A DNA stretch of 64,000 bases, taken from contig JBDHLU010000001.1 of the NCBI GenBank assembly GCA_039656555.1, positions 406-64,405 on the forward strand, in the 5' to 3' direction. The position numbers and the translations under genes are program-made. Every line of letters starts with the position of its first letter. The stretch's first letter is position 1. The stretch comes from Gemmatimonadota bacterium. Lineage in GTDB: Bacteria; Gemmatimonadota; Gemmatimonadetes; Gemmatimonadales; GWC2-71-9. The notes below the pieces were generated by a model. It made no database searches. It was not told where the DNA came from and saw nothing but the letters and a program-made list of their open reading frames with translations. Shown piece by piece: positions 3,025-50,624 of this stretch.

Positions 3025-4596
3025 TTGGACAGTTACAACTTGCTAGAGACCTTTGCCAAGCACGCCAAGAGGGCACCCGATCGTGAGTGTCTGGTGCTTG
3101 GCAACCGACGCCTGACGTACGGTCAGGTCCAGTCCGAGGTGGACGCGTTGGCGACGGCTCTGCACGACCTGGGGGTGACCCCAGGGACGCGGGTGGCCGT
3201 GGATCTACCCAACTGGCCGGAATGGGTGGTGCTGTTTCTCGCCGTCTCGAAACTCGGTGCGGTGCTCGTACCCCTGAACTCCTCGCTAGGCTATCACGAA
3301 CTCAAATACCTGTTGCGGCACACCGAGGCGATGGTCGCGGTGGTTGCGCAGAGGTTGGGCGACGTCGACTGCTTCGAGGTGTTCGAGGACCTCGAAGGCT
3401 CACTTCCTGACCTCCAGTACCTCGTCAGTGTGGGGATGGAGGACTCCTGGGCGGACGACCGGATCCATAGGTGGTCGGATTTGTTGGCCCGGGGACGCTC
3501 ACGGGATCCGGTGGCAGGCACGCTCACCGATCCGAAAGACCCCGCGGCGATCCTGTATACCTCGGGTACCATGGGGAAGCCGAAGGGGGTGGTGTTGTCG
3601 CTGGAGAGTCTGATCTTCACGGCAGACCGATCGGTCGATGCGCTCGAACAGTCGGCGGATGATCGCGTGCTTGTGGCGGTTCCCTTGTTTACTATCTTTG
3701 GGATCCATATCGTGCTCGGCGGACTCGTGAGTGGCGGGACCCTCGTGTTCCAGGAACGATTCGAGCCAGGAGCGGCCCTCGACTTGATCGAAGCGGAGGG
3801 CATCACGGTCTGCCACGGTGTGCCAACCATGTTCCAACTCTTGATGCGCGAGCCCTCATTCGAGAGTAGGAATCTGTCCACTGTCCGAACGGGCATTGCG
3901 GCGGGGAGCCCGGTCTCCCCAGACCTCGTGCGGAGAATTCGGCGGTGGAATGACGTGCAAATCGCCTATGGACTCACCGAAACGGGTCCGACGGTTTCGA
4001 TCACTCAGTTCGACGATCCGACTGAGTGCCGCGAATCCACCGTCGGGAGACCGATTTCGGGAGTGGAGGTGCGCGTGCTAGAAGTCATATCCGATGACGC
4101 GCACGGTACCAAGGCTGTTGGCGAGCTTGCCGTCCGCGGTCCGAACGTCATGACGGGATACCTCCGCATGCCGTCCGAGACCAAGAAGCTGTTCACGGAG
4201 GACGGATTCTTCGTGACCGGCGATCTCGCGTTCGTCGACGAGGCTGGATACGTCACGATCGTTGGAAGACGAAGGGCCATGATCATTCGTGGCGGCCACA
4301 ATGTCTTCCCCAGAGAGTTGGAAGATGTGCTCCGTACCCATCCGGCACTTGATGATGCCTGTGTGGTCGGGATCCCCAACGAAATACTCGGGGAGCTGAT
4401 CTGCGCGTGTGTCATTCCGGTGGAAGGAGCGATCATCACTGGGGAGGAGATCAAGGAATTCTGCCGCGAGCACCTTGCCAACTACAAGGTCCCGGATGCG
4501 GTCCGGTTCTTCGACACCTTCCCGATGACCGGGAGCGGGAAGGTGCAACGACTGGAACTGGAACGCGTTATGGGGCTGGAATTGAGTAATACGTGA
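3025..4596 (+). CDS. AMP-dependent acyl-CoA synthetase/ligase (fatty-acid-CoA ligase family)
   Basis: AMP-binding signature [13 protein letters not shown], plus YGLTETG and [19 protein letters not shown]. The ORF opens at 2875, but its first ~50 codons run through the C-tract repeat. In-frame TTG 3025 is proposed as the start (uncertain). Confidence 0.85.
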
Positions 4597-6272
4597 ACGA
4601 CAGAACTCCCAACATGGCGTCGCCAAGCGGCGCCGCCACCGTGCACGCCCCCAACGCAGCATTGATGATCGATTTCGACAACGTCACGTTGGGTATCCGA
4701 ACCGATCTGCAGAATCAACTTCGTGCGCTGATGAACTCCGAGATCATCAAGGGCAAGGTGGCGGTCCAACGCGCGTATGCCGATTGGCGGCGCTACCCTC
4801 AGTACATCGTGCCGCTATCGGAGGCATCCATCGATCTCATTTTCGCGCCGGCATTTGGTTCCAACAAGAAAAATGCGACCGATATCCGTTTGGCTATCGA
4901 CGCGCTCGAACTCGTATTCACGCGACCGGAGATCGGGGTGTTCATCTTGCTCTCGGGCGATTCGGACTTCTCGAGCCTGGTGCTGAAGCTGAAGGAATAC
5001 GGAAAATACGTAATCGGTGTCGGGATCCGCGAATCGTCGAGCGATCTGCTCATTCAGAACTGCGACGAGTATTACAGCTACAATGAGTTGACCGGATTCA
5101 CGAAAGAAAGTGACGTCGAACGCGTGTCGATGGATCCGTGGCAACTCGTCGTGCTCGCGGTGACGCAGATGAAGAAAGAAGAAGACGTGATGCGTTCTGA
5201 TCGTCTGAAGCAGGTCATGCAGTCGCTCGACCCCACCTTCGACGAAAAGAGCGCCGGCTTCAACCGGTTCAGCAAATTCGTCGTCGAGGCGCAGAATCGA
5301 GGAATGATCACGCTTACGAAACTCGACAACGGCCAATTCGCCGTCGATATCGGTGACAACGCCAATGTGTCGCCCGAGGACGAAGAAGCGTTCAAGCAAT
5401 CGAGTGGCCGCGGCGGAGGTCGTTCAAAGCGTCGTCCACGTTCTAGGGGGCCGGCCAAACGCAGCACGCTGCTCCTGGCCGAAGCGTTCGATCTTCTGCG
5501 AGAGGCATTGGTTCAGTTGGGGGCGACCGTCGAAGCGTCCGTAGATGCCGAGGCGGTGCACGAACGGATGTTGGAGCTGTTCTCCGGCGATGATGATCCG
5601 TTGTTCGAACGCCCACGGTTCCAACGACTCATGCGCCAAGCGCACGACGCCGATGTAATCGAACTGGTGAAGCAGGGCGACACCTACGCAATGCGATTGA
5701 GTACTGCCACACCGGCACCGGCCGCCAAAGTGGAGAAAGGCGAGGACTCAGGCGAAGCGACGAAACGCCCGCGCACGACGCCAAAGACCACGAAGGCCAA
5801 GACCACGAGAAAGAGGGCGCCAAGGCGTAAACCGTCAAAGACGGAGGAAGCGGATCAGTCACCGAACGCAGGAAAGAAGGACCAGCCTGCGGCCACTGAC
5901 CCGGTCGCGCCACGACAGTCGACCGGCTCCCGTTCGCTTGGGCCACGCCGCGGGAGTAGCCGGGGATCTCGAGGTGTGAAGGCTCCACCGAAGCAGGAGG
6001 AACCAAAGAGCGCGGAATCGGTGGGTTCGCCCAAACCGACTCCGGATCCCAAACCCACTCCAGAACCCAGATCCAAACCCGCCCCCAAATCCAAACCGGC
6101 CCCCAAATCCAAACCGGCCCCCAAATCCAAACCGGCACACACACAACGGGTCGACGGAGCTCCACGATCACCCATCGCCGGCGAGACCGCGTCCTCCGAA
6201 GAAGATGGTGGACTTCTCAAGCGCATGAGCGCCGCGATCCAGAAGGTGATGCGGGGTCCGGAGGACGAGTAG
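4593..6272 (+). CDS. NYN (LabA-like) domain protein with central OST-HTH/LOTUS-like region and Lys/Pro-rich basic C-terminal tail
   Basis: [21 protein letters not shown] and [27 protein letters not shown] fit the NYN/LabA fold. The C-terminal ~190 aa are K/P/R/T-rich. GTG 4593 overlaps the upstream stop (GTGA); ATG 4614 is an alternative start. Confidence 0.75.
6069..6140 (+). repeat. 18-bp tandem repeat x4 (AAATCCAAACCGGCCCCC) encoding (KSKPAP)n inside the NYN protein tail
   Basis: Units at 6069-6086 (2 mismatches), 6087-6104, 6105-6122 (identical to the previous unit) and 6123-6140 (diverges at its 3' end). Confidence 0.9.
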
Positions 6273-6316: not shown

Positions 6317-6850
6317 GTGGCGCGCGATCTGCTTGGGTGCGTGCTCGAGACGACCCTAGGCGGTGCGACGACTGCTGGCCGGATCGTCGAGGTCGAGGCC
6401 TACACGGGCCCAGACGACCCGGCGGCTCACAGTTTCGGCAACCGCAAGACTGCGCGAAACACGTCGATGTTTGGCCCAGCTGGGTGTGCCTACGTGTACC
6501 GCAGCTACGGCATGCATTGGTGTGTGAACGTGGTGACGGAGCGTCGTGGGTACCCCACTGCCGTCCTGATTCGGGCACTCGAACCTCTGAGAGGGCTCGA
6601 GGTAATGCGGGAACGACGAGGGGTGGACCGGGACAGGTTGCTGTGTGCCGGGCCGGGGCGTTTGTGCCAGGCGCTTGCCGTCACCCGTGAACACGATGGC
6701 AAGCCGCTGCAACGTGGGCCGCTTCGGGTCCTCGGCGGCGAGCCAAAACCCGATATCGAAATCGGAGTGAGCGGTCGCATCGGGATTTCCAAGGCCAGCG
6801 ACTGGCCGTTGCGCTTCTACATCGTGGGGTCGCGCTGGTTGTCGCGCTAG
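6317..6850 (+). CDS. mpg: DNA-3-methyladenine glycosylase (Mpg/AAG family)
   Basis: VEVEAYTGPDDPAAHSFGNRKTARNTSMFGPAGCAYVYRSYGMHWCVNVV is the characteristic Mpg core. GTG start. Confidence 0.85.
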   Translation: MARDLLGCVLETTLGGATTAGRIVEVEAYTGPDDPAAHSFGNRKTARNTSMFGPAGCAYVYRSYGMHWCVNVVTERRGYPTAVLIRALEPLRGLEVMRERRGVDRDRLLCAGPGRLCQALAVTREHDGKPLQRGPLRVLGGEPKPDIEIGVSGRIGISKASDWPLRFYIVGSRWLSR

Positions 6851-7069
6851 AGCCCCCGCGGCGAGGGGTCACGATGGCCGATAGTCGATGGCCGACGGAT
6901 ATACTCCGTCCGCCCGCCCGCCAGTCCGCGGCTACAGCACCTCGTTTCGCGGCGCTACGTCGCGGAACTCCAGAAGCCCGGCATCAGACTACCGTCGATC
7001 GTCGCGATGGTCGGTGCGGCCGGCATCGGCGTGGTCGTCGGAAGGACGATCCCGTGAAAAAGGGCCCAT

Positions 7070-7279
7070 TTACAAAGGTTGTTTGTAAGCTCACAACGCC
7101 CGTTTGTCGGCTTACAGTCGCCGTTTGCAGCATTACACGCGGCGTCTGCGACCTTACAGTCGCCGTGTGCAATGCTGCAAACGGCGTATGTAACCTTCCC
7201 CACACCGTCTGCAACGTTACATATGCCGTTGTAATGCTTGCAAACGGCCAATGTCGGCTTACAAACACCGATTGTCGGC
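7070..7279. repeat. Array of ten exactly phased 21-bp degenerate direct repeats (approx. TTACA-N3-GCCGT-N-TGY-N4), non-coding
   Basis: The TTACA-class anchor recurs at 7070, 7091, 7112, 7133, 7154, 7175, 7196, 7217, 7238 and 7259, always 21 bp apart. GC is lower than the surroundings. An embedded 15-bp hairpin pairs 7180-7194 with 7216-7230. One extra out-of-phase unit lies near 7307-7330. Confidence 0.85.
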
Positions 7280-7497
7280 CGGGTTTCCTGTTCCCCTGAT
7301 TTCGTTGGCTTGCAAACCGTGTCGGTTCACTCATTCACAACCCTCACAGGGAAGTATCCTATGAGTCGCTTCCCCCGAACAGAGCCCGAGATAGCTACGC
7401 TTGCCCTCGTGGTCACGCAGGGACTTGCCGTGATTGGCTCTCCATTAGGCATGGTTAGTCGTAGAAGCGACCACCTGGCACGGGTACCAGCCACGCG

Positions 7498-8697
7498 CTA
7501 GATCAATCCGAGTTTCGTCCCGACTTTCTTGAACGCGGCAAGGGCTTCATCGAGGTGCTGGCGCGTATGAGCCGCGGACACCTGGCAGCGTACTCGGGCC
7601 TCTCCCTTGGGAACGACAGGGAACCCGAATCCTGTTACGAACACTCCCTCGTCCAACAACATGTCACTCATTTGGATGGCCTTCGCGGTCTCTCCGACGA
7701 TTACCGGGATAATCGGCGTGTCACCTTCCAACGGTTTGAACCCGAGTTCGAGAAGTTCCCCTCGAAAATATGCGGTATTGTCGCGGAGCGTTTGCACCCG
7801 TTCCGGATGGGCCCCCAGATAGTTGACGGCAGCTAGAGCGCTTCCAGCCACTGTACACGGTAATGCATTCGAAAAAAGCTGAGGGCGCGATCGTTGTGTT
7901 AGGTAGTCGCACAGCGCTTCCGATGCTGCCGTGAAGCCGCCAGCCGCACCGCCAAGTGCTTTGCCCAGGGTCGATGTGACTATGTCGATGTCCCCGAGTA
8001 CACCGGCGTACTCGGGAGTCCCGCGTCCACTTTTGCCCAAGACCCCGGTTCCATGCGAGTCGTCGACGGCGACGATGGCATCGTACTTTCGTGCCAACTC
8101 CAAGATGTCTGCCAATTTGGCGACATCGCCCTCCATCGAGAAAACGCCGTCAGTGAAGATCATTCGCGTCCGTGCCTCGGCGAATCCCTTGAGTTTCTCC
8201 TCTAGGTCGTTCATGTCGGAGTGCTTGTAGACGGCGGAGCGACACTTCGAAATAGATTTCGCCAGACGAATAGCGTCGATGATCGATGCGTGGTTGAACG
8301 CATCCGAGATGACGGCGTCGTCCGGGCCCAGCAACGTGGCGCACAGTCCCTCGTTGGCGTTCCAACACGATACGTAGGTCAAGGACCTTTCCGTGCCAAC
8401 CAGTTGCGCGAGGGCGCGTTCGAGTTCGCGATGGATGGTGAACGTGCCGCAGATGAACCGCACGCTCGACGTGCCGGCACCGAACCGGTCGATAGCCGCC
8501 TTTCCCGCCTCCATGATCTCGGGCATCGCTGAAAGTCCGAGGTAGTTGTTGCTCGAGAGGATGATGATGTCACCGCGTCCCTCCATCGTAACGCGCGCGT
8601 CTTGGGGCGAGTCCAAATAGTTGAACCGCTTGTACACGCCGTCGGTTTTGAGCTGCTCGAGTTCCGCCTGCAACCGTTGGTTTACTGAAGAATTCAT
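7498..8697 (-). CDS. kbl: Glycine C-acetyltransferase (2-amino-3-ketobutyrate CoA ligase)
   Basis: Starts MNSSVNQRLQAELEQLKTDGVYKRF. Class II aminotransferase/PLP features (SNNYLGL, DDSHGTGVLG, TLGKALGG). Its ATG overlaps the tdh stop (ATGA). The longer ORF to 9027 is an artefactual extension. Confidence 0.9.
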   Translation of the reverse strand: MNSSVNQRLQAELEQLKTDGVYKRFNYLDSPQDARVTMEGRGDIIILSSNNYLGLSAMPEIMEAGKAAIDRFGAGTSSVRFICGTFTIHRELERALAQLVGTERSLTYVSCWNANEGLCATLLGPDDAVISDAFNHASIIDAIRLAKSISKCRSAVYKHSDMNDLEEKLKGFAEARTRMIFTDGVFSMEGDVAKLADILELARKYDAIVAVDDSHGTGVLGKSGRGTPEYAGVLGDIDIVTSTLGKALGGAAGGFTAASEALCDYLTQRSRPQLFSNALPCTVAGSALAAVNYLGAHPERVQTLRDNTAYFRGELLELGFKPLEGDTPIIPVIVGETAKAIQMSDMLLDEGVFVTGFGFPVVPKGEARVRCQVSAAHTRQHLDEALAAFKKVGTKLGLI

Positions 8698-50000: not shown

Positions 50001-50624
50001 CTGGTGAATGCCCTGGAATCGATGGATGAACGCATGGAGGCTGCCCAGCAACGGAGCTTGGAACAGTCTGATCAGCAAGGGCAGCAGGGCCAACAAGGCC
50101 AACAAGGCCAACAAGGCCAACAAGGCCAACAAGGCCAACAAGGCCAACAAGGCCAACAAGGCCAACAAGGGCAGGGAGGACAGCAAGGGCAGCAGGGAGG
50201 CCAGGCCAATGATGGTACGGGCGGCGGGACTCCCGGTGGAGACCCGGTTCGCGGTGACGGACAGATCTCTCCGGATGATGCTCGTCAGTTTGCCCAAGAA
50301 ATGCAGGTGCGCAGGCGAGAGTTGGAATCGCTCCGGGAGCGGTTGATGGAGGCAGGCGTCGACGTTGGTGATCTAGATGACGTCCTGAGGCGGATGCGGG
50401 CGTTGGAAAATCACCGTGAAATCGGTGAGCCGCGCTCGCTGGCCGAACTCAAGGAGGCCATTATCCCCGGCCTCAAGGAGTTCGAATTCAAGTTGCGGAA
50501 GGAAGCGGGCGGGATCCAAGAGGACGTATTCCTTACGGGTTCGGGTGAGGTTCCGGAGGAATACCGCAAGCTGGTCGAGGAGTACTACAAGAACTTGGCG
50601 AAGCGCGGAGGCGGTGGGAACTAG
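47091..50624 (+). CDS. Large membrane-anchored coiled-coil / low-complexity protein (DUF4175-like), 1177 aa
   Basis: GAAGGAG RBS 7 nt before ATG 47091. Two N-terminal TM helices and VALYLEEHEP. The C-terminal half is E/R/Q-rich coiled coil interrupted by Gly runs (GGGGGGG, GGGGGGGGG, GGGGG) and a (QQG)n block. Confidence 0.7.
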   Translation: MLGLFHEPPPRPTDYKSMLDIIRSVRTRWRLRILLRGVAIVFTVGLVIFLVASVGLEQFRFSSGAVVAFRTLAYVSIGALIWFYLVKPLFRRVSDERVALYLEEHEPSLEGQVTTAVEFGGVPGIDERVNLSPLLVDRMVQHAVRACSKIDDGKRVDQRGLRRSSGWLAGATLVSAVLFLMSPEVVRNSAPFLLRPFGTGVGSSPYSIAVTPGDTTMPRGADLKITANLVNFNADAAYLSVRNGDDQDWQRWPMTLDAETGTFDFLMFSVQNDAEFQVEASGVRSSSFRVSVVDLPYVDRMDHEYRFPVYTGLSPQTFEDAGDIAALRGTSVLLSIMPTIPVAAGAVVVDEQDTIPLVQEADRLTGQLKVSRNASYRVLLTSIDGVEVVGSPDYFIDALDDQRPAIRFKTPGRDMKVTSIDEVFTEVTAEDDYGIEMVEFLFSVNGGEEQVITLFGPGGSRSNLTAGHTLYLEEFGLQPGDVVAYYARTRDTRRVGQPQMTTTDIYFLDIRPFDWRYRQAEQQGGGGGGGEPAMSPGELSRRQREIVAGTFNLRRDSLDYTVDELREHLTTLALSQGRLREEVETLVRRLEGRRVVELDSTFTTVAEELPKAILAMEEAEEQLGRQRAGDALSPEQVALQHLMRAEAAYREREVSQGGGGGGGGGGQNATAEELADLFDLELDKLRNQYESVERSERQQVAEQVDETLERLRELARRQQQENERMRARAQNLNAGGGGGQGQRSLADETEELARQLERLSREQRRPELMETVRELQQASEAMRRAAANNQNGGAQGQSALDQLREARRLLEENRSAGLRQEVDDALRRAERLAQEQREMADNVSRLPDEPAARDRERLQQLVARKTEMASEVNDLEAEIDQLSRDARSEQPDASQQLRDAAREMRDTRLGDKIMYSRGVMQARSNEYAENFENQIQNDLDGLERQIRQARDAIGESRDQRLEEALDEARDLVNALESMDERMEAAQQRSLEQSDQQGQQGQQGQQGQQGQQGQQGQQGQQGQQGQQGQGGQQGQQGGQANDGTGGGTPGGDPVRGDGQISPDDARQFAQEMQVRRRELESLRERLMEAGVDVGDLDDVLRRMRALENHREIGEPRSLAELKEAIIPGLKEFEFKLRKEAGGIQEDVFLTGSGEVPEEYRKLVEEYYKNLAKRGGGGN
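50088..50168 (+). repeat. Perfect 9-bp tandem repeat GGCCAACAA x9 (encodes QQG repeats) inside the large coiled-coil gene
   Basis: 81 bp of uninterrupted identical 9-mers, flanked by degenerate QQG/QGG codons that use different synonymous codons. Confidence 0.95.

Follow-up and report, generated by a model that had tools for sequence, protein, structure and literature searches.

A phased 21-bp repeat array on an orphan fragment of a conserved Gemmatimonadota locus

How did ten regularly phased repeats come to lie between two convergent housekeeping genes of a Gemmatimonadota bacterium, and what could they be for? In this study we analyzed a 64,000-nt stretch of contig JBDHLU010000001.1 (assembly GCA_039656555.1), hereafter the window, in which an initial annotation made from the sequence alone had noted an array of degenerate 21-bp units between mpg, ending at 6850, and kbl, ending at 7498. 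Both flanking genes were confirmed by Pfam (PF02245 and PF00155, respectively); an exact look-up of the two proteins gave no existing record. We show that the window copy is an orphan 643-bp fragment of a conserved Gemmatimonadota locus, in which the array stands between two pseudogene stubs, and that the array is non-coding. Its native home in Gemmatimonadota is the interval between an upstream sigma, anti-sigma or membrane gene and a gene for a protein with an fn3 domain.

The array consists of ten 21-bp units at 7070-7279 that keep a common phase throughout. Autocorrelation reached 0.59 at lag 21 and 0.58 at lags 42 and 63, against values of 0.13-0.31, around 0.24, at every other lag, and Tandem Repeats Finder (TRF) returned periods of 21, 42 and 63. 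Nine matches to the motif TTACANNNGCCGTNTGY (with up to two mismatches) were found in the window, eight of them inside the array; shuffled windows gave a mean of 1.8, and none of 100 shuffles reached nine. The ten in-phase units of the initial annotation are borne out. Its pentamer series and example units match the sequence, and the drop in GC content, which it had put at about 50%, was measured at 52.4% for the array compared to 59.9% for the window. Its statement that there is no phase slip holds for the phase itself, which is kept to 7279, but unit 8 carries a compensated -1/+1 indel (GCCGT-TGTAATGC). An extra unit proposed at about 7307-7330 dropped out, as this segment aligns with the post-array spacer of related loci and not with a unit, and no further copy of the array was found within the 64-kb window.

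The column consensus of the array is TTACAAACGCCGTTTGTAAGC, a perfect 19-bp palindrome plus GC. Its palindromic nature accounts for the alternating TTRCA and TGYAA half-motifs, and also for the same frame staying open on either strand, where every seventh codon specifies Cys. Columns T2, C4, A5, T15 and G16 are near-invariant. The units are contiguous and lack the unique spacers of a CRISPR array.

An inserted fragment of a conserved locus

The array had been taken as an isolated element of an ordinary intergenic spacer. We found that it sits on a 643-bp segment (6851-7493, plus strand) flanked by direct copies of the 8-bp sequence CGCGCTAG. The left copy (6843-6850) contains the mpg stop TAG and is identical to the right copy (7494-7501), which contains the kbl stop, reading CTA on the plus strand. 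L001, the closest relative, has mpg directly adjoining kbl at a single ...CACGCTAGACC..., where the mpg TAG overlaps the kbl CTA. Compared with this empty site, the duplication identifies the 643-bp segment as an insertion with target duplication, and it was the duplicated 8 bp that rebuilt the stop codons of both genes. No array was present at any of 80 related kbl loci; the best kbl match is 85% identical, the organism being a member of the Gemmatimonadota. Absence from relatives with the same flanking genes, which the initial annotation had named as grounds for dismissing the array, is formally what we observed at this site, but the test is misleading, since these relatives do conserve the array family at other places in their genomes.

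The outermost 93 bp (6851-6943) and 65 bp (7429-7493) of the insert had no match among the fetched sequences, and no further homology of the ends to membrane or fn3 genes was credible. The ends are not complementary, no terminal inverted repeats were found, and the ends are not common to the other orphans described below, so that the insert has the target duplication of a miniature inverted-repeat transposable element without its conserved ends.

Homology to known genes begins inside these ends. The C-terminal 37 residues of a 240-aa membrane coiled-coil protein are encoded at 6944-7054 (tblastn against residues 204-240 of L131: 51% identity, E 8.5e-8), and with its TGA this 3' stub extends to 7057 on the plus strand; no ATG, GTG or TTG precedes its membrane helix. 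Its changes relative to L088, read directly from the sequences, are conservative or synonymous. On the other side of the array, a shortened post-array spacer (7280-7360, plus strand) with a Shine-Dalgarno-like GGGAAG at 7349-7354 aligns with the spacer of about 150 nt in L088 and L086, minus a large internal deletion. It is followed by the 5' stub of an fn3-family gene (7361-7429, plus strand), whose product MSRFPRTEPEIATLALVVTQGLA is 83% identical to residues 1-23 of P0001; full-length homologues have about 201 aa. Past 7429 the open reading frame (ORF) diverges from fn3 and runs to 7501, into the kbl stop. Because its first 23 codons match the fn3 protein, the 46-aa ORF at 7361-7501, which the initial annotation had listed as possibly translated, is a gene stub and not a separate gene. 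The order seen in the family, with the end of a membrane or sigma gene, the array and an fn3 start, is therefore present in the window as stubs only, and the intact genes are absent.

A search with a two-unit DNA pattern yielded 49 metagenome loci, several of which hold true relatives of the array. We defined the family by tandem 21-bp units in 10-15 copies with near-invariant columns 2, 4, 5, 15 and 16; the window array has the phased units and the near-invariant columns, and its units are orthologous one by one to those of L088 and L086. L088 and the window have in common the sequence left of the array, the array itself and a downstream ORF start (M.RFPR.EP.IA.LALVVT). In L086 this downstream ORF is complete and encodes 203 aa with a C-terminal fn3 domain. 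For the fn3 protein, more than 500 homologues with a length of about 201 aa were retrieved; where a source is named, it is Gemmatimonadetes. A 21/42-bp periodicity was present in the gap upstream of the fn3 gene at all eight loci examined. In most of them the array directly follows an extracytoplasmic function (ECF) sigma gene or the gene for the membrane coiled-coil protein. L086, L130, L134 and L135 have an ECF sigma gene, a gap of about 550 bp with the array, and then the fn3 gene. In L131, which belongs to the same metagenome-assembled genome as L001, the gene before array and fn3 is that of the 240-aa protein, which has a coiled coil and a membrane helix near each terminus. One genome has two array loci (L130 and L134). 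In L089 an ECF sigma gene and a zf-HC2 anti-sigma gene are followed by a related array and a lipoprotein gene, and in L110 a related array precedes merB. No arrays outside fn3 loci were found in about 700 kb of other Gemmatimonadota DNA. Viral contigs gave no match to the array pattern and only one fn3 homologue, again at a contig end. When the fn3 and membrane proteins were compared with PHROGs, PADLOC and PDB (sequence and fold search), only the fn3 domain and weak coiled-coil-type matches were returned.

Several further observations concern these loci. In L110 (reverse strand; oriented coordinates 483-853 and 857-1923), merB and a mercury-transporter-like gene come immediately after an array of near-identical TTACATCGACCGTTTGTAAGC units, one of them of 20 bp; the same leader and array recur in a different context in L081, which derives from that metagenome too. 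Contigs end just upstream of fn3 genes, 30 nt from the fn3 ATG in L132 and 48 nt in L142, and most fn3-family genes are found on contigs of 1-3 kb, metagenome assemblies breaking at the arrays. Directly downstream of fn3, tRNA-like structures occur in L086 (2755-2847) and L134 (3384-3483); one is a 'tRNA-Cys' of 94 nt that has a long extra arm and is truncated where the contig stops, and the other a 100-nt structure with a 4-base anticodon.

The junction that received the insert differs among relatives. Apart from L001, most relatives have mpg and kbl separated by an outer-membrane-like gene. In 11 of the 14 kbl-mpg gaps read (L008, L010-L013, L016-L018, L021, L026 and L029) the intervening gene encodes a signal-peptide protein (WYWGAQGG...GGHWLIT). 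As L001 and the window lack the signal-peptide gene, the kbl-mpg junction is a variable spot. Upstream of kbl, L021 (2143-2261), L026 (2029-2279) and L029 (2030-2288) carry a 15-bp tandem repeat, CGCTTGGTGGCCTTG, in as many as 17 copies. In the window, the frame after the mpg TAG (6851-7057) stays open for 68 codons in frame with mpg, probably by chance; a protein made by read-through would gain a membrane helix at its C terminus. The long ORF that precedes mpg (4593-6272) has a low-complexity repeat tail at about 5990-6130, and a 9-bp tandem repeat, CAAGGCCAA, with 10.6 copies and 95% match is found at 50076-50170.

A non-coding array with constrained columns

Could the array encode a protein? 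A small Cys-heptad protein (xVCxLTx), read on the plus strand from GTG at 7054 or as its mirror on the minus strand, might be a metal-binding peptide or resemble a ribosomally synthesized and post-translationally modified peptide. Such a product would suit a frame that is open over the array on both strands, a 21-bp period divisible by three and a GTG that overlaps the TGA of the upstream stub. Similar ORFs exist in public data (P0126, P0137, P0139 and P0140), and one in L110 stops 4 nt before merB. We consider this explanation highly improbable, however, since the substitutions do not behave as those of a gene. In a unit-by-unit three-way alignment of the window, L088 and L086 arrays, differences per site at codon positions 1/2/3 were 0.18/0.22/0.16, 0.33/0.30/0.26 and 0.38/0.33/0.29 for the three pairs; with the three position classes equal there is no coding pattern in any frame on either strand. 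Differing codons were overwhelmingly non-synonymous, with 31-42 such changes against 6-8 synonymous ones on the plus strand and 29-39 against 8-10 on the minus strand. The best-conserved columns of the window array include the third positions of the supposed Leu, Thr and Ala codons. The positional orthologues L131, L130 and L135 would read VPKLRH instead of VCKLT and have no Cys, units of 20 or 22 bp occur in several arrays, and a direct reading of L131 shows that its first unit is interrupted by an in-frame stop. As for the overlapping start, a GTGA overlap after a TGA stop is expected by chance in 3/4 cases.

Database searches agree with this. No ORF of either strand had a Pfam or NCBIfam match above cut-off (best Dicty_CTDC, E 0.046, 14 bits against a cut-off of 27 bits), and a word-indexed search of 5.8 billion proteins returned no homologue of the array ORFs. 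An exhaustive phmmer search gave 66 matches, mostly junk ORFs over unrelated repeats, together with four array relatives. No maturase-like ORF stood out among the listed neighbours, of which only mpg and kbl were scanned against Pfam. The initial annotation had judged coding unlikely from third-position GC content; the substitution pattern between orthologous arrays now carries that judgement further.

Constraint in the array falls on particular columns. In 32 comparisons between orthologous units, T2, C4, A5, T15 and G16 showed 0-2 changes and G9, T13 and G20 showed 4-6, with 8-17 changes in the remaining columns. The constrained columns put a CA:TG step every 10-11 bp. Arrays of the CCGAAGCTTCGG type (L131 and L130), which can be aligned to the window type via common AAGCTT and ACGCCGT, are invariant at these columns too, though with different bases (G4 G5 and C15 C16), so that the mirrored triplets have switched together, from ACA:TGT to CGG:CCG. 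Columns 2, 4, 5, 15 and 16 are near-invariant in all arrays, and it is the lineage that decides which bases fill them. We also noted that a 63-bp, three-unit super-period outscores the 21-bp period in four arrays covering both sequence types (window 7143-7270; L130 5729-5850; L131 1137-1258; L135 3708-3881).

Evidence for selection on the array outside its native place comes from other orphans, which lie beside a tmRNA gene (L088 and L136-138) or a PIN/RHH pair (L139), or have a PadR gene on one side and an insertion sequence (IS) on the other (L140 and L141). Their homology to L086 always starts at the array start and stops between 42 nt upstream of the fn3 ATG (L139) and fn3 codon 23. L088 and L136 are close kin, with a neighbouring gene 97.7% and the tmRNA 98% identical. 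Between them the array core of 228 bp and 11 units has kept 96.5% identity, in exactly inverted orientation, whereas identity over the remainder of the module is 85-87% (Fisher p 2e-5 against the core). The edges of the inverted core coincide with a TTTGCAGGCC(T/C)GCAAT inverted repeat at palindromic unit junctions. In L089 the upstream genes and the asymmetric CGT side of the units are on opposite strands. The conservation of the inverted core and the orientation in L089 together indicate that an orphan array can be under purifying selection, as in the L088/L136 pair, and that array orientation is not fixed.

Readings at the DNA and RNA level

What, then, might read such an array? Our leading but tentative interpretation, to which we give somewhat less than even chances, is that the array is a phased binding platform read on duplex DNA by a hypothetical factor, serving as a roadblock or insulator at its native loci and as an extra or decoy site in orphans. 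A sequence-specific factor would recognize T2, C4, A5, T15 and G16 at the DNA level and would coat one face of the helix along ten direct sites spaced by 21 bp, or two turns. Occupied in its native place, the array would gate read-through into, or expression of, the downstream gene, as no sigma-type promoter was found between sigma and fn3. The window copy, an internal fragment of such a locus, was inserted exactly at the overlapping mpg and kbl stop codons; it would probably still be bound by the factor and serve as an extra or decoy site. DNA-level protein binding and the roadblock and decoy roles are inferences. The initial annotation had pointed to a same-face architecture; of its suggestions, a phased conserved cis-element, best read as a protein-binding array, still stands, but the iteron or origin part found no support. 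Replication-origin iterons were rejected as a candidate: there is no rep or par gene, the insert has no intact gene, the neighbours mpg, kbl and tdh are housekeeping genes, and the GC content is 52% with no AT-rich stretch.

Several points weigh against a DNA-bound platform. The ECF sigma gene is the only gene for a DNA-binding protein that accompanies the arrays, and their half-sites do not match the linked sigma's own promoter. Conservation within the units is asymmetric, TTRCA and CGT being kept better than their mirror images, which would also suit a strand-specific RNA motif. Selection on an orphan array was demonstrated in one pair (L088/L136) and not for the window copy, and the evidence for inversion comprises one event and one differently oriented locus. 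Finally, the native array is probably part of a sigma-fn3 mRNA, which leaves room for a role at the RNA level. This last point follows from the promoters: a TGAAACC-N16-CCGTA motif, presumably autoregulatory, lies 28-38 nt upstream of the four array-linked sigma genes (L086, L130, L134 and L135) and is absent between sigma gene and fn3, so that the sigma-fn3 transcript probably crosses the array. Array half-sites as sigma -35 elements were rejected as a candidate, because both array types go with the same promoter and the spacing within units is 11 nt instead of 16. On the minus strand of the window, TGAAACCGCGTTCCCTCACCCACGTA at about 2214 fits the ECF promoter motif, with no sigma gene downstream.

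The main rival is therefore an RNA-level motif array, which we hold possible though rather less probable than binding to DNA. Reiterated UURCA and CGU.UG motifs, or loose structure, in the mRNA would be recognized by an RNA-binding protein or RNase, which would thereby control translation, processing or stability of fn3, and orphans would act as sponges made by read-through transcription. Besides the probable transcription of the array, the asymmetric conservation speaks for this explanation, since the units mostly keep one orientation relative to fn3. So does a special unit in L130 and L134 whose 6-bp GC stem, on direct reading of the sequences, survives a change from G-C to G-U. Both strands of the window array also fold well beyond dinucleotide shuffles (z -8.9 and -7.5).

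These large z-scores stem from the repeat consensus and not from selected helices, as there is no excess over column shuffles outside the window: inter-unit complementarity had a z of -4.4 in the window, but -1.7, +1.8, -0.2 and -2.0 in the other four arrays. The excess in the window can be seen as a long imperfect inverted repeat at 7112-7193, in which 37-nt arms from units 3-4 (7112-7148) and units 5-6 (7157-7193) are 86% complementary. A long hairpin as the functional unit was rejected because the window array alone has this excess. The 15-bp hairpin proposed earlier (7180-7194 with 7216-7230, one G-T pair) is correctly paired but is not conserved in other arrays. Per-unit hairpins found no support either, as covariation of the polymorphic R3/Y17 pair is absent inside arrays. 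In L088 this pair was Watson-Crick in 4 of 15 units, G:T in five and A:C in five, A:C thus being as frequent as G:U. Base pairs that remain constant number two per unit. Strand preference in fold energy is not consistent, the antisense strand being 20-25 kcal/mol more stable in L131, L135 and L130, and the core of L136 is conserved though inverted. No Rfam family reached E 0.01, the closest overlaps being miRNA-precursor models (E 0.07-0.8) far below gathering scores, and a scan of five related loci found only tmRNA.

A third possibility, which we judge unlikely, is that the array is recombinogenic or invertible DNA, with no binding factor at all. The quasi-palindromic array would be a substrate for inversion and illegitimate recombination, and would act as a switch or as a fragile, self-propagating minisatellite. 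The exact inversion of the 228-bp core between L088 and L136, with its bounding inverted repeat, is what such an element would produce, and orphan fragments with similar limits in at least four unrelated contexts, the 8-bp duplication at the window insert, the inverted complementarity in excess in the window array only and the breaking of assemblies at arrays all point the same way. Yet no recombinase or transposase accompanies the arrays, save an unrelated IS that interrupts fn3 in L140, and the window insert has neither terminal inverted repeats nor conserved ends. No promoter-like site was detected inside the window array. The absence of arrays from the other Gemmatimonadota DNA indicates that they are not spreading freely, and the invariant columns together with the 96.5% identical orphan core point to selection at the sequence level instead of neutral turnover. 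Recombination would thus explain the orphans and the inversion, but not the constraint on the columns.

Known repeat systems and biological meaning

Tandem-repeat arrays of whole-turn period also form plasmid partition centromeres, such as parC of R1 (ten 11-bp repeats), parC of pSK41 (20-bp repeats) and sopC of F (twelve 43-bp repeats). Like our array, these have about ten head-to-tail repeats with a partial dyad in each, and they are thought to build a cooperative protein filament on one face, as we propose here. They differ in that our array has a chromosomal housekeeping setting, a native locus between sigma or membrane gene and fn3, and an unrelated unit sequence; no gene for a partition NTPase (parA or parM) or for a centromere-binding or adaptor protein was found in the window flanks or native loci. 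ArgR operators, to which other multi-operator arrays are similar, are paired 18-bp ARG-box palindromes placed 3 bp apart, 21 bp from centre to centre. The 19-bp palindromic consensus plus 2 bp gives the same 21-bp spacing, with successive sites on the same side; unlike ArgR operators, the arrays have ten to fifteen sites and not two, lie off a promoter and are built of asymmetric units. We know of no regulator matching the array.

Repetitive extragenic palindromic sequences and bacterial interspersed mosaic elements of enterobacteria are palindromic units in or at the ends of operons that can influence mRNA stability and bind proteins, gyrase and IHF among them. The window array resembles them in its palindromic units and its place between convergent genes. 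They are dispersed in hundreds of copies, however, whereas our arrays are strictly tandem and phased and were absent from the surveyed DNA outside fn3 loci. Reminiscent of invertons such as fimS and hin, a segment of about 230 bp with 16-bp inverted repeats lies in opposite orientations in two close relatives, L088 and L136, and the arrays have a native place upstream of a gene. In contrast to invertons, no recombinase lies nearby and no promoter was detected inside; the opposite orientations were seen between these two genomes and not for the window copy. Each of these nearest analogues is set apart because at least one of its defining features was looked for and found missing.

A full-text literature search returned no description of such arrays. 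Phased tandem site arrays as a kind are known, and it is the fn3/ECF-sigma context that appears to be new. It might even be that the arrays represent a new class of cis-element, although we regard this as rather unlikely at present: an orientation-independent nucleoprotein filament of 10-15 sites, used as a regulated roadblock or insulator between the upstream sigma, anti-sigma or membrane gene and the fn3 or other gene that follows, with a reader that would co-evolve with its sites (ACA:TGT against CGG:CCG) and spreading fragments that would be selected as extra or decoy sites.

In practical terms, the arrays break metagenome assemblies and yield spurious 'Cys-heptad' ORFs in public protein sets. 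The orphan copies show that an array can relocate and survive without the genes it belongs to, a point relevant to the spread of regulatory DNA. Gemmatimonadota are abundant in soil and sediment, yet have almost no molecular genetics, and a 210-bp bait with defined invariant bases offers a concrete experimental handle. If our interpretation is true, sigma-factor signalling in this phylum would make use of a new kind of regulatory device, a conserved and selected non-coding array tied to ECF sigma loci and to an fn3 family of 500 members.

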